A stretch of 62,587 nucleotides of DNA, the filler included, from Asterionella formosa (taxonomy: Eukaryota), in NCBI GenBank assembly GCA_002256025.1. It is 17 parts of 17 records of this genome, joined end to end, with 100 filler letters (N's around TTAATTAATTAA, not from the genome) between each part and the next. Parts side by side here need not be neighbours in the genome. Positions count along the whole stretch, not along the records: positions 1 to 30,453 come from NKIB01000868.1; 16 more parts are not named here. One strand, given 5' to 3'. This document shows positions 1,099-60,308 of this stretch, piece by piece; within the stretch, counting starts at the first letter, position 1; each line of letters opens with the position of its first letter. The notes below the pieces were generated by a model. It was not told where the DNA came from. It was given only the letters and a program-made list of their open reading frames with translations, and did no database searches. The position numbers and the translations under genes are program-made.

Positions 1099-2699
1099 CT
1101 ATGGAAGCTTCAATTTATCTAAACCACTAGTCACCTTGGCAGAGGTGATGATATCTCCTTCTTTGATATCAGACAAGAAATCATTTCCTTCAACGACATA
1201 ACCAAAGCAAGGGTAACGACCATCCAACACATTCTTTCCAGCTGGAGTCAAATCAGAATCAAACAGCAACCAGAAGAACTGACTACTTCCGGAATTTGGA
1301 TCATATTCTTCTCTTGCCCATCCCATGGCCCCATAGGAAGAAAAAGGTAAGACAGTGGCTTGACCACCACGACCTTCATCTTCCATTGTGGTTTCGTAAA
1401 AAGGTCCCTTATCACCTTTTATGAAAGTTTCCAATGGAATTAAACGTTCGCCATGTTTTCCAGCACCAAGAGCCTTTCCAGGCTTGCCAACGTAGCCATC
1501 TGCCTCTCCTTCCGGATTACCAGTTTGCACCACAAATCCATCACTACGCTGAATATCCATCTTGGTGTAAAAGCCCTTATTTACTAAATCAACAAAGTTG
1601 CCTCCAGTGACAGGGGCTGAGATTGTAAATGGATAACGCGAAACCGATTGTATGCGATGAAGGTTAGAAGATTCAAGCGTACAGCAATTTGAACCACCCA
1701 CCGCAAAGAAAAGCTCCTTTCAACTTACCAGTGTACCCATCAATTACCATGACTAACTTGGCTTCGTCGAAGTTCTCTCCATTAATATCAAAAACTCCAC
1801 CATTTGCCTTTTTCAAGACAAATTCAACTGTTGCGCGTCCCTTAAGCTGCGGCAGATCATTATATTCTTCAGGCACGGGTGTTTCATATCCCCGTGGGAC
1901 CATATTTTCTTCCAATTTGTTCAATTCTTTTGTCAGCAATGTTTGTGCCACATATGCCTTGTCCAAGGCTGTGCGTTCTTGTTCGGAACCCCGAGATGCT
2001 TCTTGGGAATCCAAAAGAGCCTTTTCGAGGGGGTCTAACTCAGTGCTGATAGTGTTTAGAAGAGAGGTACAATACGTGGCATCCTGGCAGGACGCTGTGA
2101 TCTTACTACTTTTGGTTTTGATTTGAGTCCGTGCCTTCTTGACCCCGTCCAGTGCAGCAGCCTTGCGTTTGGAGCTAACATCTGTTTTAATATCTTCAAT
2201 CGTAGACTGAAGTTGACGGACCTGTGAAGTAGCATGGTGTTGTAGGATGGACGACATAGAAAGATGATGCGTGATGTGTGAGCATTAGTTTGAATGCACA
2301 GATCGTGTGAGCTTCGACAACTGCAAACAGAACAAACAACAGGAAGATGACATGAAATGGATATCTACAAAAACACACCTCCTTGTTATCAATTGGAAGA
2401 CCAAGTCGAAGCAAGGATTCAGGATCTTTATTCACTCGAGAACCTGATCCCGATGCCATTTCCTTAGCAACAGCTGTATTGGTGGGAAGGTGATCCAAGA
2501 ATGAGATAGCAGGGGCAGACCAAAGTGAAGCAGTCAATACAGCCACCGCCATGACCTTGGACGCTTGGTCTTGTAGGAATGCCATCTCTTTGTTGACGGC
2601 TTGCAGTGGCGTGGCGAAACTTCGTCGATGAGAAGCCGATGGACTGAAGGCGGATGCCGCAATCATCAGGACCGAAAAGGTAGCAAAGAAACACTTCAT
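1099..2699 (-). CDS. CYP38: Thylakoid-lumen cyclophilin-type PPIase, CYP38/TLP40 family. Exons 2699-2379, 2221-1729, 1616-1099 (~443 aa)
   Basis: GT-AG introns at 2378-2222 and 1728-1617 join three ORFs in frame. Motifs: KDPESLLRLGLPI, LPQLKGRATVE, IDGYTAPVTGGNFVDLV, SGSSQFFW, LDGRYPCFGYV. The N-terminus has a signal peptide plus ASAF motif and a second hydrophobic stretch ending AVA (lumen targeting). Confidence 0.9.
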
Positions 2700-3081
2700 T
2701 CTCTACAACTTTTCTTTATGGCTTGCTTAAGTACTGAAGCGGCTAGACCTGAAGGAGAGCCTTTCCGTTCTACTGTTGTGGAAATGTAATTGCTGCAATG
2801 ATGAATCTACGCTATGATGTTCTAGCCGATGCACTGAAATGCATGTCAAATGGACAATCTTGATGACACAGGATTCGCCCTTGGTTGGCACCATCACTGA
2901 CGTTATCGACTCGAATGAGTCCTGAGTCAAGAATGAGAAGCAAGCCAAGAAAGATTTGCTTCCACTAGCATGCGCCTTGTGACTGTTCTCTTAGGCTGTG
3001 ACGGATTAGGTTTAAACATGCATGGCAGATTGCCCAAGCACACGGCACCGCCTCCTTGTCCCTCAGCCCATCAAACCCAAA

Positions 3082-3501
3082 NNNNNNNNNNNNNNNNNNN
3101 NNNNNNNNNNNNNNNNNNNNNNNNNNNNNNNNNNNNNNNNNNNNNNNNNNNNNNNNNNNNNNNNNNNNNNNNNNNNNNNNNNNNNNNNNNNNNNNNNNNN
3201 NNNNNNNNNNNNNNNNNNNNNNNNNNNNNNNNNNNNNNNNNNNNNNNNNNNNNNNNNNNNNNNNNNNNNNNNNNNNNNNNNNNNNNNNNNNNNNNNNNNN
3301 NNNNNNNNNNNNNNNNNNNNNNNNNNNNNNNNNNNNNNNNNNNNNNNNNNNNNNNNNNNNNNNNNNNNNNNNNNNNNNNNNNNNNNNNNNNNNNNNNNNN
3401 NNNNNNNNNNNNNNNNNNNNNNNNNNNNNNNNNNNNNNNNNNNNNNNNNNNNNNNNNNNNNNNNNNNNNNNNNNNNNNNNNNNNNNNNNNNNNNNNNNNN
3501 N
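3082..3501. other. Scaffold gap (N run)
   Basis: Continuous N run. Confidence 1.
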
Positions 3502-4923
3502 AGAAATTCCTTCTTCCACCGCTCTTTTGTTGCTGCACGTCGACTTGGCCGAAGAGCTTGAAAAGCAAGCTGAATAGCAATTCTTCGACCATGTTCTTCC
3601 CATCCATTACCCAGACATCGTTCCAGAACAGCCCCTGCTACAGCTGCCATGAGTGGTGGACATACGGCATTTCCAATCATTCGATATTGTTCTTTAATGT
3701 AAGCCATTTCACCTTGATCTATTTGTTGAAGTGGGAGTTGGAAGGTCATTGGAAATCCCATGACTGATGCACATTCACGTGGTGACATGCGACGAGGTGT
3801 ACGGCTGGTGGGTACCAATTGAGAATTACCCTTTCCAACGCAAACCCCATAATGAGAATCAAGAGTGTCACACACAGTATCCTCCCATGCGAGTCTAGAG
3901 GGTTTCCATTTGGACTTTTTCGAACCAAGTTGTTCCATTTGAGCATCTGTCATTTCTAAAATGGATTTGTCTAATTCGTAGTCCAAGACATCTCCAGCTC
4001 GCAACCCCAAATCAGGAATGTAAGGAAATTCAAATGGCGTAGCGGTCGTGTTACATGATGGACTACTTCGCAATCCCACAAATAGTAGCCGCTTTCTGGA
4101 AGTTGCTGTAACACATCGAGCCGATATTACCTCTGTTTTGACCTGATATCCAACTCCCTCCAACGCTTTGACTATAGTTTGAAAGGCATCAGGCAGTTGT
4201 AACATACCAGGTACATTTTCTAACAAAAAGGCCTTTGGTTGGACCACTTGAAGGAATCTAACAATTTCAAGAAAAAGTCCCCCACGAGTGGTATCATTCA
4301 ATCCAGGTTGAGATCCCAGAGCGGAAAAAGGTTGACATGGAAAGCCTCCCACCAATAGATCCACTGGAATTTTCGTTAGAGCGGCTAGTTGATGGTTGGT
4401 AACTTTGTAAATATCACCATGCATGTCCGCAGCATCCATGGTTGAATTATTTCGGTAGACAGTTTGGCACCGGTCCAACACTTCTGAACAAAACACACAT
4501 TTACCTCCCATGGCTTCCAACGCCAGCCCAAATCCTCCAATCCCCGCAAACATTTCGCAAAACTTAAATGTCTCAGCAGGGAATGATGATGAAGTAGTGG
4601 TAGTAGTAGTGCTTCGTCGTTCTGGATGAACCGTTGCATCCACGCACTCCTGTTTTGGTATTTTGTTACTGGGTGTCACAAGCTTGTGAATTATTTGCAC
4701 TCCATCTGTCTGAAGTAGTTTTTTGATATCTTCGTTTGTATTTAGTAGTTGTACCACCGCGGTTGATATCAATGGTATCCCCATGCTGTCATTGTTCACG
4801 CGATGTGTCCTCGAACCATGCCGACCTGCTGAATGCCAAGGTCGAGGAACACTACCAGTAAGAAGGAGTGTTTGATACGCCGATTTGGTTAGTTTGGGAG
4901 GAACCAAAAGGACTGCTTCCATT

Positions 4924-4957
<34 letters not shown>

Positions 4958-5015
4958 CATTTGGATTGTTGTGTTCAGCCGCATCCATCCCGATCTCAAT
5001 TTGTCGTGTTTTCAT
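3502..5015 (-). CDS. DNA (cytosine-5)-methyltransferase with bacterial Dcm/HhaI-like motif order; 3' end lost in the gap; start ATG at 5015 or 4988
   Basis: Motif I EMFAGIGG, motif IV GGFPCQPFS, motif VI LLENVPG, motif VIII SRKRLLFVG, TRD DTL, motif IX RRMSPRECASVMGFP, motif X YRMIGNAVCPP. Intronless, with a poly-Asn N-terminal extension. Confidence 0.93.
4927..4957. repeat. (TTG)n microsatellite encoding the poly-Asn tract of the methyltransferase
   Basis: About 10 consecutive ttg units. Confidence 0.9.
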
Positions 5016-5270
5016 GAATGACAAGCCAATTAATTTATCCTTGTTTCGGCAGCAGGACAATGACAATCAATCAAGCAAAGCACACGTTCATGAAGAAGCA
5101 ACATCAATGACAGTGGGTATATGGTAGGCAAATAAATACAATCAAAGTGTGCACAGCCTTGACTTTCGCTCGAGTGCAATTGAAATAACATGATCTGATG
5201 GGACCTCACAAATTGAGAGATGCGAGCGCGTCTGGCATGGTACGTTGTACATGTCTGCATGGTATCGGGG

Positions 5271-9201: not shown

Positions 9202-10309
9202 TATTTGTTGCACTCAAGGTCAAACCTACCAATTTTTTGGGGTTAATTTCGAAAAATGATATCTTTAAAATATTTGCCATTATAGCTATAACTTTAGTTC
9301 CCATTGCAATGGGGAGTTGTTTGGACTAAATGTTTCCAGTAATGGGAGCTATGGGGAGCAACACAAATGCTGCGGCAAATGCCATGATTGAGCAGGATGA
9401 TGATATCAGGATCAAACTGGCTGTTGTGGAGGATATTTTGGGCAAAAGCTGTTGGATGCCATCAATGCTCTCCTCATCAAGGATGGCACAGATTTTTGTA
9501 CTTTTTCTGGGCAGGAAAGGCAATGTGCAAGGCCCAAGTACATCGACAAGAAGTTATTGCAGGTTCTAGAGCTTTATAATGATGATGAGAATTCAATGAT
9601 GAGAAAGAAGGAGAGCAACAAGCACGCACTGTAAGCCACCACTTGGTGAGCAACAATCTTAATGACTTTGAAAGAATTAGATCTTAATGGCTCAATACAC
9701 TGAATCAAAACTGATTACTTACACATGCAACAATTACTACAGGCAACAGGCCTGTCTATTTGGATTCATTGGAGACTTTGTGTGAATGTTAATGAGTTTG
9801 TCTACACTAAAATAGGAACATTATTGTGGGATCAGAATATATAGCATATTTTTAATGAATCATGGTATGACGGTGTGTCTTATTCGCTAGTAAATGTTAG
9901 CAGTAGAGTAATTCTTGTTTGAATCAAGCTCATCATTATGACAAACCTTTGTATATATGTGTAGCTTTGTCTAGCTTCATTGTGATGAAACATTTCTGCT
10001 ACATGCTGTTTCTACGTCAAAACATACAAGCGCAAAAACTCAAAAAAATATCATTGTTACTTTGCGATTACTCCACGCCAAAACAGATATATAAATCAAG
10101 AGTATGTACTACTCATGGCTCTTGTTTAAGCAAAAGAAGTAGATTTAAATTACTCTAGCTACGTCCAAAGGCATGTATTTAAATATGTACTGGATTATAG
10201 TCTTGGTTAATGACGATGGCAGGCAGGATGACACTATAAAGGCACCAGTACTGCCTGCTGATTATTTTACTTACCAGTATACGCACAGTACATCTTATAC
10301 ATGTGGTTC

Positions 10310-10880
10310 AAGTGAGGCTGGCGTAATTTTACAAGACTGGGATACTCCAGCCGAGCTAAAGCAGGTGAGCAAATTCAATTCAACCAATCAAAATAAGTGT
10401 AGTGGCTGATGCGGGAACTAACCATGGAGTCTTTTCGGACAGAGAATTATGCAGGCAAATAAACCTAGCTACGCAAGACTCCCATGTTTACAATAACATT
10501 TTCACATGTAAAAATTCCGATTCCAATATTTTAGTGACTGTTGAAAAAGTCGATTGGGTCGGCTTTTTGGAGGAGGATTGCTCTACATCTAGCACCGGAG
10601 GGTTTCATGACAATTAAAATAGATAGCCATGTACCCTAGTATAACGTCAGGAGTTAACTTCTGGAGAGAAGTGGTAGTTATGTATCGTAGATTTTTTGAA
10701 AAACTTAGTAGCCCCTTTTTTGACTACTTTTGTGGTAGTTACAAATCTATTATACGTGACTGCCACTTCTTTCTAGAAATGGGGGGGGGGTCCTTACCAT
10801 CTCTGAATATTGATCATAGTCGAGCAATGTCTGTATCCAAGCATATGCAAAGTGGTTGAATTGCTGAAGGCTAATTTTAC
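10310..10880 (+). repeat. Dispersed hairpin-bearing repeat family, copy A (boundaries approximate)
   Basis: Collinear similarity to 59450-60056, 42622-42940 and 55600-55925 (reverse), e.g. accaatcaaaata, gattcc.a.att.t...ac.gttgaaaa and ctgtat..aag.at.tg.aaag. Stem 10659-10694 pairs with 10743-10778. Confidence 0.75.
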
Positions 10881-10966
10881 CTTCAACTATTTTATTTAGT
10901 TGTACATCATGTGTGGATTGAGGTACATCATAAAAATATTTGTGAAAAAACGGCCCTCGCTACCAT

Positions 10967-11097
10967 GTGTAGCTAACTGTGGGGACTTTGTACAGATAGA
11001 GAGTAGGGCGAGAACACGAGACAGGCATTCACAGACAAACAGACAGACACATGAATCTACCGATACGTCATGATAGGACGCACAGTGATTCATAACA
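10967..11097 (+). mobile_element. 5'-truncated solo LTR of the short-LTR family at 50816-50955
   Basis: Reverse-complement match to 50816-50955 (gactttgta..gatagagagtag...gagaacacgagacaggc..tcacagacaaacagacag), ending exactly at the gattcataaCA terminus. Confidence 0.75.
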
Positions 11098-11612
11098 ACC
11101 ATTCTTGGCTTACTGATATTGCTTTATGTGGTACTCCGGAGTACGTAAGAATTGGTGCTGCAGACGTAATCGATCCTTGTTGATTCAAACCAGCCAGCAG
11201 CTGTTGAATGATATGATACCAAGTACCGGCATATGTGCATAACGGCTTAAACGAAAATGTCGTGTTCACAATGACCTTCAATATGCGTCAGCGAGTGTCC
11301 CTGCTGATATCGGATTTGCCCTGTCGGTATTCGAGAAATCAATTATTATTGTCTCATAATTGGATTGTTATTCACTGGAAGTCCTTGCCTACAATAGCTC
11401 GAACCGTCTTTTACGGCACCTTCCAGATATAGTTTAACCTTCGGAAACGACGCAAGGTGGTATCATTCGGTTTCCATGTAATATATCATTATTTTGGCAT
11501 CTTGTCGAGAGGCATTACATACGCAATACATACACAAGACATAACACAACAACACAACATCGGCTAGACGATTGTTCCCTCCTGCTCGCGATCGATTTTC
11601 AGCTATCGCAGC

Positions 11613-14200
11613 ATGTCCAATGTTCAGGAGCACCACGAGGACTCAGACTTTTCGTACGATGGAAAATCCAGAGTGAATCGACTGGACAATAGTACACGAA
11701 TCGCTCATATTAGCACGATCCTCCCCTTCACTTACTTTGACGAGAAGGGAAACCGATTAGTAGACCCCTTTTGGCTATTCCACGACGCCGCCGCCTGGGT
11801 TGCTGCCAAAGATTTCAATGAACGGAATCCCAGGATCGTTAAGGACCTGCTGCAACACACGCAAGGCTGTGATGTCAAGCTCGTCCTCAAGATGCACGAC
11901 ACCCAATTCATCACCTCCCTAGCCCAACGTTATCTCATTAAATCATTGTATTTGCCCAAGGTCGAACAACCAGCAGGGATCATCGGAGAAGTTTCCTCGT
12001 CAGCCTCAAAAACAGTGGCCACTCTGGCAGGAGCGTATGAATTGCCACAGCTGTCGTCGTCGTCCACATCAGAAGGCCTGGAGAGCAGAGACACATATCC
12101 TTTCTTTGGGCGAACCATTCCTACAAATGCAGCGGACGCGAAAGCCCTATGTATTTACTTCCAATCCTTGGGAGTCACGCACTTTGGTGTTGTTTACTCA
12201 AAAGGCGACTACGGAACAGCCTTTTGGGCAGATATTCGGATGGAAGCAGAATCACGAAACATGGTGGTAAAAGGCATGCCCTTTGTAGGCGATTCTGATA
12301 GTACAAAAACAGCTGTTGAGCAAATGGCAGCGACGCAATTTCGGTACTTTTTTGGTATTATTACGTACAATGAATACCGAGATCTCTTTCTTCAAGCAAA
12401 GGAAGTAGGCATTATAGGAAATCCAGATTACGTGTGGTTGCTCAGTGAGGCTGCCGTTGAATCATTTCAGGAAGAAATTGCATTGGATCCTATCGAGGAT
12501 GCCGATCTTTTGACTGCCATCAACGGAATCGGTTATATCATCTTAGACATTCCTGAAAGTGAAGAATTATATGCAGCACTCTCAGAGTTAACAGAGCAGC
12601 CAGTATTGTTACAGGAAATGATATCTGTTCATGATGACCCTTTTGCATTTGAACATTTTGACTTGATAGGAACCACGGTAATTTCGTCGCAATATCATAT
12701 ACTGAATTACGATGCCATGATGGCAATGGGTTTTGCCATTTGCATGGCAGACCAAGAATTTCCAACTGGACCACAGATATTTCACTCCTTAACTCGTAAC
12801 GTAAAATTCCAAGGAGCGTCCGGTAATGTAGATCTGGACAATGTTACTGGCTCACGTGTGCTGGAAGGCTTGAAGTATGCTGTCTACAACGTTCTCGTCA
12901 AAAGGGACGAATCAGTTACTAATCATACTCACTTGAATATTATACAATCGGCATTAGTGAATTTCGTTGGTGCTGGTGCCGTAGAGCACGTGTTCCCATT
13001 TGTTTACTCCAATGGAGCCACTGTTCCACCCTTGTCACTACCACCAAGGAACGAAAACCTCAATCTTATTCCAACAGGAATAAGAGCATTTGGATTCAGC
13101 CTTTTCATCCTGGCGTCATTTACTTCGATCGGATGGGCGACATTTACCATCAAATACAAGAAGAAACCTATTGTCAGGGCATCCCAACCGTTTTTCCTAT
13201 GCATGACATGTGTTGGAGCATTTATCATGGGTCTGTCTATTTTGATGTCTGGGTTCCAGGAGCCAATGCCCATCAACGTCTTGAATTTCGCGTGCGTTGC
13301 AAACTTATGGTTCTTCTCGTAAGTTTTCCATGAAATCTGAAGTTTGTTTGCCTTGTTTCACAACCTCGCGACTCATGCTACATCAATTGTCGTTTCATCC
13401 TAAGAATCGGATTTGTAACTGCCTACTCTGCGATATTTTGTAAAATGTGGAGATTAAACCAAGTGAATTACAAAGGCAACCGCTTTCGACGAGTTGTTGT
13501 ACGTCCTAAGGACGTGCTGTATCCCTTTGCCATCCTCATGTCTGCCAATATCGCCATCCTGACTGCTTGGACAATCGTAGATCCACTTCGGTGGACGAGA
13601 GTTGAATTGGCCAACTACTTTGATATCTTTGATAGGCCATCGGATTCAGTTGCGTATTGTCGAGGAAGTGACAGTACGACCTCTTATTTTATCTTTATGT
13701 ATGTGGGGATCAATGTTGTCGCACTGATATTTGCCAACTATCAGTCTTACGTAGCGCGAAAGTATCCATCGGCTTACAACGAAGGATATTATATCGCTCT
13801 GTCTGTTGGTTTTTTACTGGAAGCATGCTTGCTGGGGATTCCTGTTATATACCTGGTGAAGGATACGCCTAGCCAAGTATTTTTGGTCAAGTCAATCTTC
13901 ATTACAATGTTATGTCTTTTGATTCTTCTCCCTCTTTTTATCCCCAAGTACTTGGCTCGAAATGAGATGGAAATGAAGGAGCCCACCCGTCACGTTTCCA
14001 ACCATGTTCCACCGAACTCAACGTTTCCTTCCCTGACAAGAAGGAGCTTGGGACGCCTTCGTTTGAGCCAGTGTTCGTTAGGCGGTGGCTCCGACAGTGG
14101 TCATCGCTTCAAGGATAATTTCCCCGACGTTACCCCACGAGAAGCGAATAACACTTCCATCGATCACAACAATGTTCGAGGGGACGCCATCGCCATTTAG
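11613..14200 (+). CDS. Class C (GABA-B-like) GPCR with Venus-flytrap domain and 7 TM. Exons 11613-13318 and 13405-14200 (~833 aa)
   Basis: ANF-receptor motifs PQLSSSSTSEGLESRDTYPFFGRTIP and FQGASGNV. IVRASQPFFL after TM1. The intron gtaagt...taag gives WFFSIGFVTAYSAIFCKMW. Also AWTIVDPLRW and LFIPK. Seven hydrophobic segments. Confidence 0.9.
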
Positions 14201-26466: not shown

Positions 26467-29400
26467 TCGTAGTTCATTTCTACAGCCTATTTGGTCCCTG
26501 ACGTGTCCTTACAGTGACGTGTCCTTACAGGATACAAGAAAGAAATAGAGAGCTTTGGGACACAATTTCAAATCAACAACAGGTGGACAGTTGAGAGTCC
26601 GGAGAAAAGATCTGAGGGTACCAGACCATCCAGAGTCTGAAGAAGTTGCACAAGGCACATCATGAGTGGCAAAGGAAAGTATACCAAGAAGGCTCAGGCC
26701 AAGGGCAAGTTTCAAGCCAAGGGAGGGAGCAATAATGCTTCTCACACCATCAAAAAGTCAGTTAATGACTTTAACTACTACCTCGGATCAGCAAAGCAGG
26801 CATCTGATTATGAGACTACTACTGAGTAACTCATCAACTACATCAAGAAAGTGTTCGACTATGGCAACAACATAGGAAAAGCGCTCAAGTTGTTAGAACC
26901 AATTAACACATTGGCATGAAAGCCAGGAATACAAGTGAGCATTGCAACAACAGAAGAAGATCACACTGCAAAGAATTGGCAATATGAGATTGAGTTCAAG
27001 GCTGATAAGATAAGAATAAACCCAAAGAGGAATGGGCAATCAACAAGGCCCATCAAAGCCATGCACAGGCACAGGCTACTACATTGGACACGAATACAGT
27101 TACCTCTGTCAATTCCAACAATTCACTGTCATCACAAGCTTCACAACAAGCAAATGTCAATCAAGTTGGATGGGCTGGAGCTCATATCAAACTACAATTT
27201 TACCAAGCATCTAAGATGCATGACTGGATAATATTGGATAATCAATCAAGTGTCACTGTCTTTTGCAATCCAAAAATGGTTGAAAACATTCAAATGCCGA
27301 CCAATGGAACCATGCACCTGGCCACAAATGGTGGATCCATGGTCACTAATATGAAGGCTGATCTTCCACAATGGGGAGAAGTGTGGTTTAACGAAAAGGC
27401 AATCACAAACATCTTCAGTCATGCCGAAATGGCAGATGGGTACAGAATTACCTATGACTCTCAGAAAGAAGATGCATTCATTGTTCATTTGCCTGACAAG
27501 CCAGTTCGATTCAAAAGAATTGGGATTACTTATATGTTTTCAAGCCTACTACAAAAATTAAAGCGGAAAATGCTCAAATGTTTAATTCGGTTGAAGAAAA
27601 CAAAACATTTTACACTGAGCATCAATTTGAGAGAGCCAAGCAAGCTCATGATCTATTTCATGTCTTGGGTAAACCATCAATTAATGATTTCAAGGCAATA
27701 ATTTGTATGAATACGATCAACGATAATCCAGTGACTACTGATGATATCAAAATTGCACAGAAAATTTTTGGACATGATGTCAGAACACTAAAAGCCAAGA
27801 CAACTTGTCGCAAGCCACTGCCAGTTGTGAACGACTACATCAAGATCCCTAAGAAGCTTATTGAAGCTCAATGCGAAGTGACTCTTTGCATGGATGGAAT
27901 GAAAGTGAATGGACAATCATTTCTCACAACAATTTTTTTCGAAACATTTTTTATAGGACAGCGCAATGGGTCAAGAATCAGACAGCTGATGTCTATTGAG
28001 ATACTTTGACTCAGCAGGTATTCTGTGTTTATATTACCGGAGGATTTAAAATTACAACAATCCACTGTGACAACGACTTTCGAGCTTTTATGGAAAAACC
28101 TTAAACCTTCCAATGAATATCAAGTCACCATGAACCAATCAAACCCATAAGAACATGTTCCTGAAGCGGAACAAAATAATCGAGTGATTAAAGAACGCGT
28201 GCGCGCAGCTTATCATCAATTACCTTTCAAACATTTGCCACGACTGATGATTAAGATTCTAGTCACAGAATCTGCAAAGAAAATGAATTTCTTTGGGATC
28301 TCCCTGTATTACAGTCCTTGTATGGTTTTACATCAAAGAAACCTGGACTATGCTCAACATTGCCAGTACACATTTGGCAGTTATGTCCAAGCACATGAAG
28401 AACCTGTGTTTTCAAATACTAATGCACCACGCAGCCTAGATTGCATTTATCTACACTTCAATGACAACATGGAAGGAGGTCATGAACTATGACAACTACT
28501 TACAAATTCATTGATCACTAGACAAACAGTTACTCCTCTACCACTTACCCCAGCAATCATAAATCAAGTACATGCCTTTGCAAGACCACCATCAAAGCTA
28601 ACTATGGTCCAACATCATTTGCATAACCAAGCACACTTTCAAGAAGAATATGCAATAGATAATGCAAAAGTGATCGCAATGACAATTCATTATATGAATG
28701 AGATGTCTATTGATAAAGAAGCATATCACTTTGTTCAGTCATACAGCTTAAGAAAAGGCCTCAAGAAATTTGGCCAGAAAGGAAGGGATGCTGTGCTCTA
28801 CAAGGAAATGAAACAACTATATGATAAAGTTCTATTTGAACCAATTAGGATTGAAGACCTAACAGAGATCGAAAAGCGACGCGCAATGGAAAGTCTAATT
28901 CTTTTGGTTGAAAAGAGAGACAAGAGTATTAAAGGCAGAGCTTGTGCCAATTGCAGTTGAGCAACGTGAATACATGGAAAGAGATGAAGCAGCTAGTCCG
29001 ACTACCATGACTGAATCTGTTATGATAACAGCAACAATTGATGCAAAGCAAAATCGCAATGTTATGACTGCAGATACACCCAATGTATTTGTGCAAGTGG
29101 ATATCAATGAGAATAAAGAAAAAGGGGAACGAATCATTATGATGATAAGAGGTTTACTTGTAAATATGTTGATAGAACTCAGCTCTGAGACTTATGAAAA
29201 ATATGTTGTTTATGAAGGGAACAACAAGGTCCTATATGTTAGGATGATCAAGGCATTATATGGCATGTTAGCTACAGTCATATTGTTATATTACAAGAAG
29301 ATTCAGAAGGATATTGAGTCAATTGGATTCAAGTTCAATCCATATGATCCATGCATTGCAAATTGCATTGTTAATGGCAAACAGCACACAGCTACTTGGC

Positions 29401-29634
29401 TCATTGACAATTTGAAACATGGACAGCAAAGTGAACAATCAATTTTTGGAATGGCTCAGAAAGAAATATGCTTCTGACAAAATTGGTGAAGTCAAGGTCA
29501 TGTGTGGAAAGAAGCATGATTATTTGGCAATGACACTAGATTACTCTCTTCCAGGAGTAATGAAGGTGGATATGACCATGTATATGAAATCAATGATTGA
29601 TGATTTTCCAGAGAAACTTGAAAATGCCAATTAA
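26467..29634 (+). mobile_element. Decayed Ty1/copia (diatom CoDi-type) retrotransposon: gag-PR-IN-RT remnants, 3' truncated
   Basis: Protease WIILDNQSSVTVFCN. Integrase HVPEAEQNNRVIKERVR. RT motifs IKGRACAN, ADTPNVFVQ, KALYGML, FNPYDPCIAN, HDYLAMTLDY. Many frameshifts and stops. Confidence 0.9.
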
Positions 29635-30453: not shown

Positions 30454-30553
30454 NNNNNNNNNNNNNNNNNNNNNNNNNNNNNNNNNNNNNNNNNNNNTTA
30501 ATTAATTAANNNNNNNNNNNNNNNNNNNNNNNNNNNNNNNNNNNNNNNNNNNN

Positions 30554-32465
30554 TGCGCATATATTCCACACCTAAGTGTTTTCGTAGGGGACCTTGTTCC
30601 GTGATATTAAAATCCTCCTTGATCATATCTTTCATGTAGTCCACTGCATTCCTGGTACCACAAATAATTCCATCATCCACATAGTTTGCCAACAGCCCTT
30701 CAATTTGTCCATCGTTGCTACGGTAGATAAACAACATTGGGTCTATTTCGCTTTTCGTTATACCTTTCTTGCTGGTGACGCACTTTGCGAATGTCTTGGA
30801 CCAGCATCTTGGAGCTTGTACAATTCCATACATAGCCTTAATTAATTTGCAGATATGTATATTCTGATTGATCCCTGTCAATCCTTCTGGGGGCTCAATA
30901 TATATGTCTTCGTCGACGTCAGCATTTAGAAACGCTGCTTCAACGTCAATTGCTTCCGCTATCCAACCGTAGTACAAAGTAACAGCCAGAACAGTTTTTA
31001 TTGTAGCATCACTTGCAACAGGAGCGAATGTTTCAGTAAAATCAACTCCTGGGATCTGTTCATATCCCTTTACAACCAACCGTGCCTTGTATACTGTCTT
31101 TCCAGTTATCACGTCCTCCTTAATACGGAAGACCCATCTTGTCTTAAGAGCTCTCTTGTTCACGTCATTTCTCTTAACTATTTTCCACACTCCTCTTGCT
31201 TTGAAGTTTTCAAATTCTTTCTTTATAGCTTTCATCCACTCTTTGCGATCAGGTCTTACCATTGCCTCATCATAACTATTTGGTAAACCTGGGTCCGATG
31301 CAAGACTTGCATTGAATACAAAATTTACTTCAGTTTCCTTATTCGAAGAAGCTTCCTCCTCAATCACATTTGGTAGTGAAGTGTCTGGAGGGAATTTAAC
31401 ATTTTTAGTTGGATTGTATGATGAGTCCAACTTCTTCATTTCTCGTTCCAACTTTGCCTGTTGCTTCAAAACATTTCTCTTTTCTAGGTCAGAAATTTCA
31501 TCACTCCTTGAGGTAGTTTTTCCTTTTTCAGTGTCTGCGGTTGATTTATCCTTGTCGTCGTCATCTTCCTTGTTGTCTGAACCTTCTGGTAGTAAATCTT
31601 CATTGTAGAAATCATCATCTAATCCATCATTATTGACTTCAGCTTCTGGTTGAACTGTTACTTTCTCTTTAGCATTGTCCTTGTAGATTTTTCCTAGTCT
31701 GTCCGTAGGTGCGTTTGTTCCATGCCACTCACTCCACTTAACATCGCGTGTATTGATTACAGTGTTAGTCTCATGATTATACATACGATACGTATCTTGG
31801 GAGTGGTCCTCCGAATAACCCAAAAAGACACACTTGAAAGAACGTGCGTCTAATTTCTTAATGCTGTGTCTTGCAGTAACCCATCCTACGCGCCCAAATT
31901 GCTTGTATAACTTGTAGGGCCTTCTTGGATTCATTTCGCCGTAGAACATGTCGTCGGGACTTCTTTTAGTTACTGAGTTAACTGTACTATTTGTTAAACG
32001 TGTAGCTGTATGTACCGCCTCTGCCCATAATAGCCCTTGGTACTCATCTGTTAGTTTCGCACTTAGCATCATTGCTAGTGCCCTCTGTCGCACAATGACA
32101 AAACCGCGTTCCGCTACACCATTGTGTTGTGGAGTGTGCGGGGCAGTAAATTCCATTTTTATACCGCGATTTTCACATACCTTTCTCAATTGTTTAGTAT
32201 TCTCGCCTGCGTCATCGCAACGGACATACTTTGTCTTGTGACCGGCTCCGGCTAAACTTGATAGTAAAATTTCAATGACTGTTCCGATATCGCTCTTCTT
32301 TTTAATGAAATAGCTCCAGCGCTTTCTTGTGTAGTCGTCCACTGCCATGACCCAGTACTGATTGCCAACAGCGGATTTCGCGTAGGGTCCGCTGATGTCC
32401 ACAAACAGTCTCTCTCCAGGTACCGTCGATTTTTCTTGCGTTGTTTTTGGGACGGCTCGTGCTTT
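30554..32465 (-). mobile_element. Ty1/copia pol fragment (integrase + RT), open frame
   Basis: Integrase DISGP, VDDYTR, RCDDAGEN, TPQHNGVAER. RT YKARLVVKGYEQIPGVDF, IDVEAAFLNA, KAMYGIVQAPR, YVDD. Confidence 0.97.
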
Positions 32466-33554
32466 NNNNNNNNNNNNNNNNNNNNNNNNNNNNNNNNNNN
32501 NNNNNNNNNTTAATTAATTAANNNNNNNNNNNNNNNNNNNNNNNNNNNNNNNNNNNNNNNNNNNNGTATTTCGGTATGCAGCAGCGGTAAGGAGAGGAAG
32601 GTGTGACTGATGGGACACCAACAGCAGGTGAAGGAGGGAAGTATGAGCTGCCAGTTTGTTTTTGGAACTATATACTTGGGTTGTACTCCCAGCAGATCGA
32701 GATGCAATGTCGCCTAGTTTTGAAACTAAGGTGGATGACATCAGCCAGTCGACTCTCGTCTTGAAGGAGTGTTGACTCCTGACTACTAGTTATTGGTGGT
32801 AGCAGGAGTGACAAGTATGCAGAACGATGATTGAGAGTCCAGAAATGCCTCAAATGTGGTGTTTGAAGAATTTTTTAACAATTAACAAGTTGATGAAGCA
32901 ACAGAAATGATACAGGATTTGTGTCAAAGAGGTAGCTAGGAGGGAGGAAGCAATTCTGTCAGTATTGTAGTCTTTCTGTTACACCAAAAACTATTTGTTC
33001 TGTGGTAGGAATGCAAAAATTTGGAATTAGGTTTGTAAGGTTGCTGAAAATTTTACAAGGGTTGAGCAGGATATAGTAAGAAAGGTGGAGTATTGTTGCT
33101 TGGCAAAGCGTTGTGTGGGATATGATGACTGCCCTACTTTGAGCTGCGGTTTTTTCACTGCCACATTGCAAATTGACAAAATGTATGAGGTATATATTCC
33201 AGATAGAACAGTGCCACAGATTAGATTGCCAATCAATTGAGGATATCTGCTGATCATCACACTGGTGGTCATACACAGCTAGTATGTGTTTAGGTTATTA
33301 TTACACAGATGCATGATTTCATACAACTGTAGCTACATTATTTTTTCACTATTTTTCATTAGCTATATATTTATTGTTTTCACTTCATTTCGGGTATATG
33401 TATATTAGACATATACACACACCCACACACACCCCTACAATAAAAGACTTGGTCCTCTATTTACTGTAATATAGTGCTATAGTATATGTACTCGTGGTGA
33501 CTCCATATTAAGTACTAGGTACTCTAAATACATAAAATGGTCTATTCCCGCATA

Positions 33555-34873: not shown

Positions 34874-36488
34874 CTATGTACCAGCAAGTTGCAGTAATTT
34901 TGATGAAACTAAAGATTTAGCTATCTTTATCCCAGATAGAAATGTTGTTCGTTTAAGCAAAATGACAGAAACTTGCAGGTAACTTGCTCTGTTGTACATC
35001 AGATAAAAGAAACATTTTTGAAGCGCAAGAGCGCTGCCACTAGCAAACAGAAGGCACTCCCAGTGTTGGGCGACCTTTTGCATGGATGAAACAAGGGCAG
35101 GGCTAGTGAGGGTCTCGGATGTGATCCAAAGATCCGTATCGTCTACAAATGCCTCTCCTGGGAGGTTGGAGTGGCGGACAGAGCGGGGAAAATGGGCGGA
35201 AAAGCCATTAGTGAGGTTGGAAAGAGCTTGGAGGAGCACATTGATCATGCACATCCATATACAGGGAGCAGCACCACTGCCCTGCAGAACTCCCAAAATT
35301 AGAAGAGTGCTGGTTGTGGTGAAATGGGCAGATGAGACACGACCATAAGCTGTGCGAACAAAAAAGTTCATAGCAAGAATGATAGCGAGCATGCAGGCAG
35401 CAGCTGAAGAGGGCATTCCTACACAAGATTCTGTGGCCATGAGACCCAGAAAGGGAATGACTCGGCCACAGCAAGCTTTGTCGTCATTGTTGAATATAGC
35501 AGCACAAGAGCGGCGGAGGCAAATGTAGTCATAGTAGGAAATACTCTTAAGGAGGATAGCGCTTAGGCAGCTGGCACCAGCAGGAATATTGCCAAAGTTC
35601 CATCGAGTCAGAGCGTTGTGGTGGAGAGCATGATAAACTAGGCGTCTACCCCATAGAAGGCGGAATGCTAAATTCATGTTGGCCTCAAGTAGTTGAATTA
35701 CTTGGAGGCGGGTGATGAGAGGATTGCCACTGTCTTTCTCAAGCATGAACTGGATGGCGGTAAGCCAACGAGTGGGGGCAAAACCAAGACGAAATGGGAG
35801 AGTAATTGTCATGAAGGCAAGAGGAGTCGCTATGGAGTCATCCCTGGCTAGAACCTTGTAGTGGATGAAATGCCGACCTGATGGGCTGGAGGCAGTATTT
35901 TCCGAAAGTGTTTTGAAACTGGATTGGAAATCCTCCATTGTGATAGTTATCTTGATTGGGTCTATGCCCTGGAGGGAGTCTGGGACAGCCATAGTTTTGA
36001 GAAAAAGACTGACTTCCAAGATGGGATCTAATGAAGCGTTTTTCCGCATGGAGAAGGGCAGCAGTGATATCTCGGTCTATCGATTCATATAGGGGTTGGA
36101 TGACTGTGAGGGGAGCATGGGTGGTGGTGTGAGATGGGCAAGATTTGTGTAGCGGGGGAAGACCTCCTGGTGAGTGTTGAGGTAGTTGTGGACAAAGGAA
36201 AGATATCGTTGGCACTGCTCTGGGTTGCATAGTCGAAGCAGACGTTGGCTGGGGGCAGTTGGGTCAGTGGAGCTATCCTGGAAGAGCGTGTGTTCATCAA
36301 GGTTGACATAAATAGCACGGTGGTCGCTGAATGGGCTGTGTTCATAGCTCAGAATACCATCTTTGCAAACTGCGGATAGAAAGAGTGTAGTTCCAAAAAT
36401 AAAATCGATGCAGAGAGATAGTTGATCTCTTATATTGGTGGAAATCGCCAATCCAAACTCACTGGATGATATGGTAGCAGCAGCTTGG
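34874..36488 (-). mobile_element. Decayed non-LTR (LINE-like) retrotransposon: end of the AP endonuclease plus RT
   Basis: Endonuclease IDFIFG...SDHRAI. RT SSPSGRH, RLQVIQLLEA, NDDKACCGRV, GVLQGSGAAP, FVDD, LALQKCFFY. Frameshifted. Confidence 0.88.
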
Positions 36489-36588
36489 NNNNNNNNNNNN
36501 NNNNNNNNNNNNNNNNNNNNNNNNNNNNNNNNTTAATTAATTAANNNNNNNNNNNNNNNNNNNNNNNNNNNNNNNNNNNNNNNNNNNN

Positions 36589-38500
36589 AAAGCACGAGCC
36601 GTCCCAAAAACAACGCAAGAAAAATCGACGGTACCTGGAGAGAGACTGTTTGTGGACATCAGCGGACCCTACGCGAAATCCGCTGTTGGCAATCAGTACT
36701 GGGTCATGGCAGTGGACGACTACACAAGAAAGCGCTGGAGCTATTTCATTAAAAAGAAGAGCGATATCGGAACAGTCATTGAAATTTTACTATCAAGTTT
36801 AGCCGGAGCCGGTCACAAGACAAAGTATGTCCGTTGCGATGACGCAGGCGAGAATACTAAACAATTGAGAAAGGTATGTGAAAATCGCGGTATAAAAATG
36901 GAATTTACTGCCCCGCACACTCCACAACACAATGGTGTAGCGGAACGCGGTTTTGTCATTGTGCGACAGAGGGCACTAGCAATGATGCTAAGTGCGAAAC
37001 TAACAGATGAGTACCAAGGGCTATTATGGGCAGAGGCGGTACATACAGCTACACGTTTAACAAATAGTACAGTTAACTCAGTAACTAAAAGAAGTCCCGA
37101 CGACATGTTCTACGGCGAAATGAATCCAAGAAGGCCCTACAAGTTATACAAGCAATTTGGGCGCGTAGGATGGGTTACTGCAAGACACAGCATTAAGAAA
37201 TTAGACGCACGTTCTTTCAAGTGTGTCTTTTTGGGTTATTCGGAGGACCACTCCCAAGATACGTATCGTATGTATAATCATGAGACTAACACTGTAATCA
37301 ATACACGCGATGTTAAGTGGAGTGAGTGGCATGGAACAAACGCACCTACGGACAGACTAGGAAAAATCTACAAGGACAATGCTAAAGAGAAAGTAACAGT
37401 TCAACCAGAAGCTGAAGTCAATAATGATGGATTAGATGATGATTTCTACAATGAAGATTTACTACCAGAAGGTTCAGACAACAAGGAAGATGACGACGAC
37501 AAGGATAAATCAACCGCAGACACTGAAAAAGGAAAAACTACCTCAAGGAGTGATGAAATTTCTGACCTAGAAAAGAGAAATGTTTTGAAGCAACAGGCAA
37601 AGTTGGAACGAGAAATGAAGAAGTTGGACTCATCGTACAATCCAACTAAAAATGTTAAATTCCCTCCAGACACTTCACTACCAAATGTGATTGAGGAGGA
37701 AGCTTCTTCGAATAAGGAAACTGAAGTAAATTTTGTATTCAATGCAAGTCTTGCATCGGACCCAGGTTTACCAAATAGTTATGATGAGGCAATGGTAAGA
37801 CCTGATCGCAAAGAGTGGATGAAAGCTATAAAGAAAGAATTTGAAAACTTCAAAGCAAGAGGAGTGTGGAAAATAGTTAAGAGAAATGACGTGAACAAGA
37901 GAGCTCTTAAGACAAGATGGGTCTTCCGTATTAAGGAGGACGTGATAACTGGAAAGACAGTATACAAGGCACGGTTGGTTGTAAAGGGATATGAACAGAT
38001 CCCAGGAGTTGATTTTACTGAAACATTCGCTCCTGTTGCAAGTGATGCTACAATAAAAACTGTTCTGGCTGTTACTTTGTACTACGGTTGGATAGCGGAA
38101 GCAATTGACGTTGAAGCAGCGTTTCTAAATGCTGACGTCGACGAAGACATATATATTGAGCCCCCAGAAGGATTGACAGGGATCAATCAGAATATACATA
38201 TCTGCAAATTAATTAAGGCTATGTATGGAATTGTACAAGCTCCAAGATGCTGGTCCAAGACATTCGCAAAGTGCGTCACCAGCAAGAAAGGTATAACGAA
38301 AAGCGAAATAGACCCAATGTTGTTTATCTACCGTAACAACGATGGACAAATTGAAGGGCTGTTGGCAAACTATGTGGATGATGGAATTATTTGTGGTACC
38401 AGGAATGCAGTGGACTACATGAAAAATATGATCAAGGAGGATTTTAATATCACGGAACAAGGTCCCCTACGAAAACACTTAGGTGTGGAATATATGCGCA
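36589..38500 (+). mobile_element. Ty1/copia pol fragment, near-identical to the reverse complement of 30554-32465
   Basis: Same boundaries and length; few differences (RNNDG/RSNDG, MKNMI/MKDMI). Confidence 0.97.
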
Positions 38501-38601
38501 NNNNNNNNNNNNNNNNNNNNNNNNNNNNNNNNNNNNNNNNNNNNTTAATTAATTAANNNNNNNNNNNNNNNNNNNNNNNNNNNNNNNNNNNNNNNNNNNN
38601 G

Positions 38602-42621: not shown

Positions 42622-42940
42622 TTTACCAGGCCAAATAAACGAGTTAGCCCGGTAAAATCCACTATTTTCAGCATAGTTAAAAAACCGAAGTTCCTTTCTG
42701 CAGTTTCTCGCCAGATCCTATATCCTGACGATATATAGCGTTGACCTATACCCCTACTTTGATAAATGACTGTATTTAAGCATGTGGAAAGGGTGTGTAT
42801 TGGTGAAAGCTCAGTTTAGTGATATACATTTACGTTTTTACTCGTAAGAAGTCTATGTTTGACTACTCTGACTTAATTTTATTTTTTTAACCCTATCTCG
42901 AGCTAGGGGTTCAAATGCAGGAACCTTAACTAAGTTCTGA
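42622..42940 (+). repeat. Dispersed hairpin-bearing repeat family, copy C (3' half)
   Basis: Closely collinear with 59755-60056. Contains the 3' stem arm at 42681-42710. Confidence 0.85.
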
Positions 42941-46262: not shown

Positions 46263-46637
46263 ATCATTGCTTTGATGTTCTGATTATTTTGTATGGCTCT
46301 GGTCCCATGATTTCTGCTGCTTGTTCGTTTCTTGAAGCCAGCAAGAAAGAGTTCTAATTAAACCACAGTCTACCATCATTGCTACATGCCATTTTCTGCT
46401 TATGTTGTCCTATCATAGACCGGTAAATAGCTCTGTATACATGTTGTCATGACAATACCGAGACTTGCAATCATCAGTGGAATATTAGGCGCAACAGCGT
46501 CATGCCTTGCGAAATTTGCTCTAGCGCCAGAATCTCCNNNNNNNNNNNNNNNNNNNNNNNNNNNNNNNNNNNNNNNNNNNNTTAATTAATTAANNNNNNN
46601 NNNNNNNNNNNNNNNNNNNNNNNNNNNNNNNNNNNNN

Positions 46638-47748
46638 TGAATGCTGCAACTCGATCGAAAATGGAAGTTCGTTCAAAAGCTACTTGGTCACTGCATTTTC
46701 CCGGTGCAATTACACCAAAATAAATAAATCTTGAGTCAGCATCACAAACAGCCTGGACATTGATTCCATAAGTCATGTAGTGACCGGAAAAAAATGAACC
46801 AGGGTTGTTGCCACTTTCAACTATAGTCGGGCGGTTGATGGTGGCTAGGAAGCCGTCAATAGCACCAACACATCCTCTCATCATGCCCTCTGAGCTTTTG
46901 CATTCAAAGCTGGAAGCCAATTTGATAAATTCTTCTTTTTCTTTTGGAAAAACAATTTCGAGTTCTCCACAGTTTAGTACAGCATCAATGAACAAATCAC
47001 GACATCGATAAAGTGAAGCAATGCTACAACCGTAGGCATGACGAATGTCGATGTACCTGCCACCAGCCAGCCATCGCAAACCATTGGCTGCCACACTTTC
47101 GGGAATTATGGGCTCAGAAGTGCCACATTTGGAATAATTCCCTGCAATCTGAATTTCCAGCATGGAGGTGAGTTTTTTGAATGCTCTGTGTGACATTCTG
47201 TATGTCTTCTCGAAAGCAATCTCGTGATTGAGTTTCTCGACATGTGATTGCCAGGAGATTCTTTCGTGGTGCCACTTGTGCCTTCGTTGTCGTCGTCGTT
47301 CAGATGACTGAAGCTGCCGTTTACAGCGTCGCCTTTGTCGTTTGGATGAGTGTTCTTTTTCCTCTGCTTCCTTAGCTAAATGACAGAGGAAGAAGAAATC
47401 AAGATCACTACTGTCATCGTCATTATCATCAAGTAAATCAAATGGCGACGACATGATTCATGCAAATGTGTGTTTTTAATATTATATTTAGTTTCCCGGT
47501 AATTATATTTTGTTGTTGCTTGATATCAAGACCATCATTATATTCCGGAGGGATATACACATGATCTTCGCCAGCCAGTTGCCGTTGAAGATTCATTTTA
47601 CTCCATGATACAATGTGATCACAAATTAGTGATACAGTGACACTTTTGGAATGAATGAAATTCAGTTCAAATCGAGTTACCGTTGCTGATACATTTTCAA
47701 AAAAATTCAAATTCCGTGATACACGAAAAAAAATGATAAGAACGACCC
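46638..47748 (-). mobile_element. PIF/Harbinger DNA transposon, copy 1: 5' terminus plus transposase 47454->46638
   Basis: YRMS...F, LRWLAGG..Y.DI, GCVGAIDG, FFSGHY, INVQAVCD. TIR GGGTCGTTCTTATCATT ends at 47748 next to a TAA target. Confidence 0.92.
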
Positions 47749-48544
47749 TAAGATAGACGGTAGTACTACGAAATACGAGGTTACAGGTACCAATACCCCA
47801 ATTGTGAAGGCTAAATGTGCGGAAAGTGCTCAGTCTAAGCAAGCGAAGTTGGCACGTGAAATGCGAAGATTGGACTCATCGTTCAATCCTACGAGTACGA
47901 AAATTGTGAAATTTTCAGGAGATACTGAGATGCCTGGTGTTATCGAGGAGGATAACATGAAGGAAATTACGAAGAATACACAGGTGAATTTTGTGTACAA
48001 CGCAAGTCTGGCTTCTGATCCAGGATTACCAACAAGCTACGATGAAGCAATGGCAAGACCAGACAAGAAAGAGTGGATCAAGGCGATCAACAAAGAATAT
48101 GAAAACTTCCAGTCGAGAGGAGTGTGGAAAGTTGTCAAACGTGATACTGTTAAGAAGCGAACACTAAAAACGAGATGGGTGTTTCGAATTAAAGAAGATG
48201 TGTTAACCGGGAAGACCATTTACAAGGCAAGATTGGTCGTGAAGGGATATGAGCAAATCCCAGGTGTCGATTTTACTGAGACATTTGCTCCAGTTGCAAG
48301 CGATGCGACAATCAAAGCGGTACTCGCAGTGACGATGTACAACGGTTGGCGAGCGGAGGCTATTGATGTGGAAGCAGCATTTCTAAATGCTGACGTCGAT
48401 GAGGACATTTATATTGAGCCCCCTCAAGGTTTGATCGGAGTCGATTCCGATACACATGTTTGCAAGCTTGTGAAGGCTATGTACGGGATAGTACAAGCTC
48501 CACGATGCTGGTCCAGGACGTTTGCGAAATGTGTCACCAATAAA
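47749..48544 (+). mobile_element. Ty1/copia pol fragment (IN-RT linker + RT), subfamily related to 36589-38500
   Basis: AKLAREMRRLDSSFNP, SLASDPGLP, YKARLVVKGYEQIPGVDF, KAMYGIVQAPR. Confidence 0.95.
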
Positions 48545-55599: not shown

Positions 55600-55925
55600 A
55601 CTGATGCTATTTGAAAGTTACTTATGTATCTAAATCGCCGTCAGACCCAGCCAACGTTTAGCTATCGTCGTCCAAAAACTCGACAAAATCGGCCTTTTCT
55701 ACGGTCGCCAAAATATCGGAATCAGAATTATTAAGTGCTGAAACGTCATCATCGGAATGGCAGTCGTGTGCCGGAAATTTTAGTCCTAAAATCTCCTGTC
55801 CGAAAACTTCCATTGTAAGTGCCCGCTTCCACATATATAATATGATTGGTGAGCATGAAGTACATTCCTCTGTTTGATTGGCCTGGTTTGCGAGGTCGTG
55901 CAAACCCACGCTGGCCACATTGGAT
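55600..55925 (-). repeat. Dispersed hairpin-bearing repeat family, copy D (5' half, lacks the long stem)
   Basis: The reverse complement aligns with 59450-59700 and 10310-10620; translates to SDSDILATVEKADFVEFLDDDS. Confidence 0.8.
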
Positions 55926-56671
55926 TAACATGTAACATTTTCTTGGGTGTACTGACAGTCCGGTGCTACGGTATATTCACGACGGGTACCAGTAGATGAT
56001 CATCATTGGACATACCGTTACGCGTACCGCTCCTTGGGTTCACTTTCAAATATTTGCCGAGCCGCCAGGTCGTATACATGATACATGGTCGTCGATCGGA
56101 GAACCGATTGTAGAACCAGGGATATGCACATTAAGCGATCTAAAATCTGAATATATATAGGAACGGATTCAATGCATAGCATATAAAATCGTTAATCGGA
56201 GTATAGAGTGTCTATGCATATATGTCAATCGTATTTTTAGGGTATATATACATACAGCGACAAGGGTGTTTATATATATATATTTAGCGATTTCGACAAG
56301 GAATATATGTACGTAATCGCAAATTTCCAACTGATTAAAATTGCTTATTCTGTACGTTTAACACAATATTCAATCAGAATTATGAACGACGATAGCAAGG
56401 ATATCAAGAAAGGCAGCCAAAGTGATCACGTAAGTGCACACAAGCCTTCTCCCACTGCCCAAAAGAAGGGTATTGATGCCAGCTTGCCTTTTGCAGATGA
56501 AGCAAAGGAGGAAGAACGAGCACGGGACTCTGACTCTTCACATGGAGAAGTCCAGCATGTTGTGAAGGAACNNNNNNNNNNNNNNNNNNNNNNNNNNNNN
56601 NNNNNNNNNNNNNNNTTAATTAATTAANNNNNNNNNNNNNNNNNNNNNNNNNNNNNNNNNNNNNNNNNNNN

Positions 56672-59232: not shown

Positions 59233-59449
59233 TGATCACGTGATATAGTGATGATCAGGAATGCATGCATGATACTCTGATCAAATAATTACCGTGATGT
59301 ATTCAGATAATATAAAGATATATTCAAGTAAGCATTTTGATGTATTCAACTAATTCATGTGATCCATTCAAAATCAACTAGGCTTATTTACTTGATGGTC
59401 TCTTCATGTAATACGCGGCTTAGATAAAATATCGGTAAGTATTTGAACT

Positions 59450-60056
59450 TGACCAATCAAAATATTTATAGTGAAGCGGACACTTGCAATGGAACTTTTT
59501 GTACAGAAGATTGTAGGACGAAAAATTGAATCACAAGACTTCAATTCTGATGATGACATTTTGTTGATTAGTGATCATGATTCCGACATTTTGGACACCG
59601 TTGAAAAGGCCAATATTGTCGAATTTTTGGGGGACGATAGCTCAACGATGGCTGGGTTTGAAAAAGAGTTGCTTAAGTACACAGGTATTCTTCATATAGC
59701 CCCAGAAGTTAATTTTCGGCGAGAAAGTGCAGAAAGGAACTTCGGTTTTCTAACTAAACGAGTTGGCCTGGTAAAATCCACTATTTTCAGCATAGTTTCA
59801 AAACCGATGTTCATTTCTGCACTTTCTCGACAGATCCTATATCCTGATGATATATAGCATTGACATATACCCCGGCTTTGTCAGAAGACTGTATCTAAGT
59901 ATATGGAAAGGGTGTATATTGGTGAATGCTCCGTTTAGCGATGTACATTTATGTGTTACTTGTACGAAATGTTTGTTTGAGTACTCTGACTCAATATTTT
60001 TTTAAGAACCCTACCTCTAATCTAGGGTTGAAATGCCAGAACCTTACTTAAGGTTG
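59450..60056 (+). repeat. Dispersed hairpin-bearing repeat family, copy B
   Basis: Stem 59720-59749 pairs with 59800-59829 (28/30 pairs). Terminal mini-hairpins aacccta/tagggtt and aacctta/taaggtt. Carries a 128-codon open frame. Confidence 0.85.
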
Positions 60057-60308
60057 TGGCCCAGCTTAAACCTAGCTTGTAGAAAACACTGCTAGTGTTG
60101 TAAAAATAGGAAGAAAAAGGAGTTTGCTTCTATGAATTCCCATGATTTGAGTGTCGATTAGAATATTTGAATTAAATAGGAATCGGTGCCAGATTGATAG
60201 AGTTCCATTCAAAAAAATTGATATATTTCGGAGGAAAACAGACCTCGCAATGTGTAGCTGTGGGGCCGCAGCCTTGCCGGTAGCTAAAACTCTTGCTCAT
60301 TATCTATT

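Follow-up and report, generated by a model that had tools for sequence, protein, structure and literature searches.

In the accessible portions of PMC9587614, Kolobok elements are described as DNA transposons that duplicate a TTAA target site, have ends of the 5'-RR / YY-3' type, encode a DDE transposase with a DxxH motif, and count a diatom among their hosts. The Kol0 lineage, of the Kolobok-1_XT type, carries a second gene, KolX, which is related to the tail of P2X7, and a CCHC finger is listed for the KolobokP, E, D, 5 and solitary families and not for Kol0 (PMC9587614). Neither the text nor the four supplementary files of that paper, in their accessible portions, describe an internal hairpin. 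The T2-MITEs of Xenopus are abundant non-autonomous TTAA elements, presumably moved by Kolobok transposases, and the accessible part of the paper on them (PMC6004289) nowhere mentions a stem or palindrome. Our literature search found no Kolobok element described as having such a hairpin, and the families treated here may be catalogued in Repbase or Dfam.

This report addresses a long hairpin in a stretch of 62,587 nucleotides from Asterionella formosa (assembly GCA_002256025.1), called the window, which is made of contigs joined by N spacers; the genome searches cover the 68.4-Mb eukaryotic assembly. The hairpin lies internally, close to the right end, in two related and abundant families of Kolobok cut-and-paste elements, A and B. 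The superfamily is already known, diatoms included, and the system itself is not new. Like Kol0 elements with KolX, as far as the accessible portions of PMC9587614 characterize them, these families combine TTAA, RR/YY ends, a DxxH transposase and a second gene akin to the tail of P2X7; unlike Kol0, their transposase contains a CCHC finger. They resemble the T2-MITEs, as presented in the accessible part of PMC6004289, in being abundant, non-autonomous and tied to TTAA, and differ from them in their ends (GGTT here, AGGRR there) and in that the common forms here are deletion derivatives of 1.0-1.2 kb, keeping ~650-700 bp of the right end.

Two Kolobok families and their copies in the window

Features of the window, by position and strand:

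10072..10106, +, family-A left-part remnant (matching reference positions 233-267 at 91%)
10262..10986, +, copy A, decayed right portion of a Kolobok element of family A (82% against L034, a full-length family-A copy, over 10262-10960; aligned with 29 other matches)
10443..10617, +, predicted last (acidic) transposase exon (predicted GT..AG intron from 10365; stop TAA at 10615-10617)
10659..10694, +, hairpin A, 5' arm (from the pairing count)
10743..10778, +, hairpin A, 3' arm (from the pairing count)
42622..42925, +, copy C, young element of family B, its right 304 bp (97% match with the family-B reference; exact TIR)
55606..55950, -, copy D, family-B fragment ending just before the hairpin (matching reference positions 522-858 at 77%)
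59424..60043, +, copy B, right portion of an element of family B (with predicted intron 59435-59506, last exon and hairpin, up to the right TIR, which ends at 60043)
59720..59749, +, hairpin B, 5' arm (from the pairing count)
59800..59829, +, hairpin B, 3' arm (from the pairing count)
60052..60273, +, 222-bp family-A element, internally deleted and hairpin-less (starts 8 bp past the right end of copy B)

Family A includes copy A, and its sister family B includes copies B and C. Copy A has lost the last ~10 bp of its right TIR and is therefore likely immobile; a further dispersed repeat, present at 10984-11097 and 50652-50969, takes the place of its right tip. The element of copy C is cut by the contig edge, with its 3' arm at 42681-42712 and TTAA at 42926-42929. 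The element at 60052-60273 has a sole close full-length match, L127, with identical flanks. In both families a small hairpin lies just inside the right TIR, within the last ~45 bp (e.g. 60008-60030), and its sequences differ.

The window holds other genes and repeats. A class C GPCR-like host gene (11568-14200, +, by eye) lies ~600 bp downstream of copy A, and an ORF at 3500-5066 (-) resembles a C5 cytosine methyltransferase (motifs by eye). Copia-type integrase/RT fragments were recognized by eye at 30498-32513 (-), 36541-38556 (+), 47720-48592, 53068-54396, 56620-57213 and 27009-29477, two 2-kb contigs among them being near-identical inverted copies, and a broken RT-like ORF of the non-LTR retrotransposon type was recognized in the same way at 34874-36532. 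Two transposase ORF starts, at 46582-47457 and 57968-58489, are 99% identical, and from their motifs we take them to be Harbinger-like. Tandem repeat arrays with a 187-bp unit stand head-to-head at 49277-50551.

DNA searches of the genome gave 853 candidates with the B region and 539 with the A region, 40 being scored in each search, and each family likely numbers hundreds of copies. As exact terminal words, a family-B 19-mer occurs 423 times (both ends) and a family-A right-end 16-mer 104 times, with 0 for the controls; a 12-mer of the outer arm occurs 656 times in the genome, against 8 for its control. The termini and target-site duplications, which the earlier note had left to be defined, are GG...CC ends with TTAA: the TIRs of both families start with GG and finish with CC, the 5'-RR / YY-3' type, and in the alignments the right end is sharp and followed by TTAA, with matching left ends upstream. 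TTAA stands on both sides in 46 of 76 complete-element rows (eight of them reverse views of one B element), the remaining listed pairs being mostly 1-2 bases off, and it is found after 44 of 54 ends in B and after 57 of 88 in A. The location of all three copies at Kolobok right ends bears out the suggestion that the hairpin is a cis-feature of a mobile family. The proposal of a new system or free-standing RNA gene did not stand, as the host element belongs, at the superfamily level, to a described transposon, and an Rfam 15 scan of the window gave no match above the gathering score.

In the long forms, of ~3.9-4.0 kb, two genes lie in the same orientation, the larger encoding a DDE transposase with PF20700 (Pfam, E 8.5e-41 and 3.8e-43); the partner, for which HUH/Helitron, Fanzor and DDE types had been suggested, is thus of the DDE type. 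At least 116 matches were listed in a genome search with PF20700, largely at known loci; a new locus, L302, belongs to family A, and weak matches fell on C14439 and C1590. A metagenome scan gave six loci, among which contig L290 stops before the hairpin and holds, at 1205-3577, an intact KolX-like gene together with the transposase P0002, of 791 aa and 95% identical to the genomic ORF. P0002 shows D308, D403-405 and D455-x-x-H458, near-invariant, as well as a candidate E582, and Pfam finds no significant family in the intact transposase besides PF20700. The family-A loci are decayed copies, with ~41-63% matches to the catalytic part of the intact B transposase. The CCHC finger follows the first D of the transposase and points to a branch other than Kol0. 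The small gene, ORF1, is called KolX-like because its profile (with 21 relatives) matches the P2X7 tail first (P2X7 537-593, E 4.3e-5) and 4 of the 21 relatives pass the PF20478 cut-off; ORF1 alone gave no Pfam match and no meaningful PDB match, and its ESM Atlas matches were all below 0.9.

Other classes were considered and rejected. KolobokP has long terminal direct repeats and a His-Me nuclease, in place of the simple TIR ends and two co-oriented genes found here; piggyBac has non-RR..YY termini and a piggyBac-type transposase, in place of GG..CC ends and a PF20700 protein. An LTR element or a SINE is ruled out by the TIRs and TTAA. Helitrons and Helentrons (HINE) come with a Rep/helicase partner and leave no target duplication; here a DDE partner is present, with TTAA on both sides. 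A SECIS-like element is excluded on the general features of such elements, the stops being TAA or TAG. Viral contigs matched neither a relative of the transposase nor the arm-pair pattern.

Pairing, geometry and strand symmetry of the stem

The arms of copy A form 29 Watson-Crick pairs, 6 G-U pairs, one mismatch and no A-C pair, and those of copy B form Watson-Crick pairs at 28 of 30 positions. The loops are 48 nt (copy A) and 50 nt (copy B), and the 3' arms of the two copies are identical at 16 of 30 bases. On recomputation, all of these values of the earlier note came out the same. Folding z-scores on the + strand are -9.8 for copy A and -8.0 for copy B, with 0 of 200 shuffles equally good, and on the - strand -6.2 and -8.5, copy B folding slightly better on the - strand. 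A covariance model of the hairpin, run on the window, recovered copies A, B and part of C, and nothing else. The strong fold, together with a covariation score of 0.364 against 0.149 in shuffles (40 related rows), would be in keeping with a free-standing structured RNA gene, or with an element of an HUH/Helitron-type or Fanzor single-strand system. However, every hairpin examined lies within a TIR element, the long copies encode a DDE transposase, the intact element consists of two genes, and in the intact transposase Pfam detects no further significant family. This explanation is already largely refuted, and we consider it extremely improbable.

Across the genome, 91 A and 71 B hairpin regions were extracted, and 89 and 62 were kept after removing one misassigned row and near-duplicates. 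The strand counts use 125 of these 151 copies (78 A, 47 B), from four subfamilies of each family with at least three members; the other 26, copy A included, fall in smaller groups. Departures from the consensus at Watson-Crick pairs comprise 62 G-U and 63 A-C, or 48 and 51 as distinct events, and the + strand folds better in two of eight subfamily consensuses. The better stem on the + strand, claimed from copy A, thus finds no confirmation at the level of the family. Six stem sites of copy A depart from the nearest consensus, five of them as G-U and one as a mismatch; such a run is a 1-in-32 outcome, hence unremarkable among ~150 copies, and the G-U pairs of copy A are for the most part private decay. 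Inserted copies decay neutrally, with singleton rates in stem and flank of 0.021 and 0.022 (A) and of 0.027 and 0.024 (B). When all departures are counted the stem rate is lower (0.038 vs 0.050; 0.033 vs 0.052), a difference that therefore comes from shared variants, since the singleton rates are equal.

In 40 representative copies, 89.4% of cells are paired, against 76.1% in shuffles, and 19 pairs show a two-sided change, which is not clearly above shuffles (37/500), the rows being related. The 3' arm of copy C had been said to restore both mismatches of copy B; it does repair both, but a new G-G mismatch arises, because copy C belongs to another subfamily than copy B. The mini-stem in the loop, also reported to covary, has two of its five pairs open in 12-13 of 40 rows and a two-sided change in two cells only, and it is absent in two B subfamilies. 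Selection on a single-stranded form, as the earlier note had it, is therefore unsupported: the argument fails because G-U and A-C changes are equally common across copies, private changes are equal in stem and flank, and the mini-stem lacks covariation.

Pairing conserved despite divergent sequence, by contrast with these claims, is borne out. The stem is near-perfect in all eight subfamily consensuses, with 31-34 of 35 Watson-Crick pairs in the four A subfamilies and 31-33 of 33 in the four B subfamilies, around consensus loops of 50 nt and 57 nt. In either family it lies about 210-335 bp inward of the right terminus, the 3' arm ending 209 bp (A) and 212 bp (B) from the terminus, and in 8/8 subfamilies neither the lengths of stem and loop nor the end distance vary, though the region is deletion-prone. 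The inner arms of A and B match at ~6 of 16 positions, near the synonymous level (12-14 of 24 third codon positions of the adjacent exon differ between A and B), and pairing is kept. The outer arm, of 17 bp, is identical at 16 of 17 positions between subfamilies A6/A9 and B13/B9, as read from the alignment, and is far more conserved than synonymous sites. The span of the B hairpin exceeds that of A by 11 bp, or about one helical turn, and loop deletions of 10-12 bp are seen in several A copies (L137, L195, L256, L111, L190); T-run slippage or helical phasing may account for both.

Possible roles of the hairpin

Our favoured reading, to which we assign a probability of about 0.45, is that the hairpin is a selected DNA-level cis-structure of the right end, the arms of which are likely re-matched by template switching. 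The stem is likely a candidate signal for the transposon's own use, and not a new RNA gene. Selection is favoured mainly because the geometry is constant in a deletion-prone region, and the DNA level is preferred over the RNA level on three grounds: strand symmetry, a constant end distance and retention of the stem in non-coding derivatives. In such a scheme, a mutation in one arm would be copied to the other during single-strand synthesis, for example in gap repair after excision, and this copying would produce mirrored block changes; amplification would continue only in lineages that preserve the stem, its ~50-nt loop and the end distance. The outer ~17 bp would serve as an inverted pair of putative binding sites, likely read by the transposase or the KolX-like protein, and the inner arm would be needed for pairing only.

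The changes in the stem bear on how pairing is renewed. Of 16 stem differences between subfamilies, 7 are mirrored by hand count, against 5 of 207 distinct events within subfamilies; six of the seven fall in two 3-nt blocks and four have no G-U route, and the Fisher p of 4e-7 is inflated because mirrored positions come in blocks. The B copy L250 has the complement of the 5' loop in place of the 3' loop, and the loops of two truncated A copies, L238 and L231, are reversed. Template switching yields multi-base mirrored changes, loop inversions and loop-to-stem copying, according to the accessible part of PMC8794818, and these loops and the mirrored blocks fit it. The cases in that part of PMC8794818 are RNA genes, whereas here the hairpin belongs to a DNA transposon with no sign of strand preference. 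Nine rows flagged as inverted loops by a scripted scan were rejected, six being the other strand of the hairpin and three normal loops with a mutated motif. Renewed pairing is confined to lineages that have amplified, and since passive copies show no self-correction, re-matching must depend on selection, on the transposition cycle, or on both. In family A, all four combinations of outer with inner stem variants are represented, the inner block going with the loop and the outer largely with the flanks, so elements have exchanged sequence within the hairpin.

The template-switch footprints at three loci and the block-like mirrored changes could also come from a functionless palindrome, re-matched by template switching in repeated gap-repair synthesis of active lineages. 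The neutral decay of inserted copies, and the mismatches (G-U counted) fixed in six of the eight consensuses, are consistent with such a by-product. However, mirroring in passive copies is as rare as 5/207 and singleton rates are equal, so ordinary replication is not maintaining the stem, and both the constancy of stem, loop and end distance in every subfamily and the conservation of the outer arm well above synonymous sites make a palindrome of no function unlikely.

The selected cis-structure has its own difficulties. The left end has no counterpart to the long hairpin, none to its core 12-mer and no long local inverted repeat, and in the commonest A subfamilies three bases of the putative binding word are altered in both arms; these points are against it. 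A common 7-8 bp word underlies short palindromes that are found no more than 50 bp from the left end in each family and from the right end in B. The multi-copy clusters of complete elements are all of hairpin-bearing types (3/3, with 28, 16 and 3 members, 4 of the 28 having failed the hairpin motif test), and the eight hairpin-less or half-deleted variants are each found at a single locus; for two hairpin-less deletions, no second copy of the junction turned up among the 40 candidates scored per search. Amplified structural variants number 3 of 15 with the hairpin, the other 12 being single loci, and 0 of 8 without (p = 0.53), in a sample which favoured the hairpin, as many loci were recovered with hairpin-containing queries. 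A cis-requirement for amplification thus lacks statistical support, the base of comparison being two families in one genome.

The stem begins 38 nt (A) or 33 nt (B) past the predicted stop, and this position suits an mRNA element equally well. The stretch of 24 codons upstream of it differs between A and B at 4, 2 and 13 first, second and third codon positions, as in a coding-constrained exon, and is probably the last acidic exon because GT and AG splice-like sites precede it in both families. The stem may accordingly act in RNA, at the start of the transposase 3' UTR, as a Dicer substrate that limits the element or as a 3'-end or stability signal, non-autonomous copies merely inheriting it. 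The long hairpin is found downstream of the ORF only, a Dicer substrate would favour perfect Watson-Crick pairing and is compatible with the scarcity of G-U, and RNA-library contigs from three studies cover the element. However, neither folding nor consensus mismatches show a strand preference, and the contigs carry no strand or ends, their many and varied flanks beyond the TIR being as in DNA carry-over or read-through. No GT..AG joint of the predicted intron was found in the RNA contigs, which cross it unspliced in all three runs, and Rfam offers no match. In two runs the contigs thin out or break over the hairpin, where the long contig of the unlabelled run also stops, which is likely an assembly effect. 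Taken with this evidence, a role in the 3' UTR is possible, if doubtful.

Family-A ends abutting family-B ends

Eight of 85 A right ends (duplicate flanks removed) have a B terminus across the 4-bp target site (L187, L188, L194, L205, L209, L222, L224 and L240), and the arrangement also occurs at L126 1038-1043 and at 60043-60052 of the window. The abutting B termini are both left and right ends, the sequences of which differ. Uniform TTAA targeting would give less than 1.5% even with 5000 B ends (p <= 4e-5, under a crude model that ignores clustering), which suggests insertion next to existing Kolobok ends. IS30 inserts beside its own inverted repeats, and the accessible part of PMC9333248 shows the likeness in insertion adjoining the inverted repeat of an existing element. 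Unlike the present case, in which the ends of two families have one TTAA in common, IS30 is bacterial, moves by copy-out-paste-in and makes a 2-bp duplication (PMC9333248). Circular intermediates have been proposed for KolobokP, in the accessible portions of PMC9587614. A rather improbable extension would have these elements move through a single-stranded or circular intermediate, like IS256/IS30-like bacterial counterparts, with the 120-nt hairpin, set at a constant distance from the right end, as a folded cis-signal, for instance for second-strand priming or protein loading; insertion against the ends of the other family would then follow from the same chemistry.

To our knowledge, Kolobok transposition has been little studied. 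In repeats, perfect "compensatory" changes can arise without a strand-specific signal, so covariation alone is no proof of RNA. A stem geometry that outlasts near-saturated synonymous sites is a precise target, and may reveal a cis-requirement or a self-regulating RNA of these transposons.
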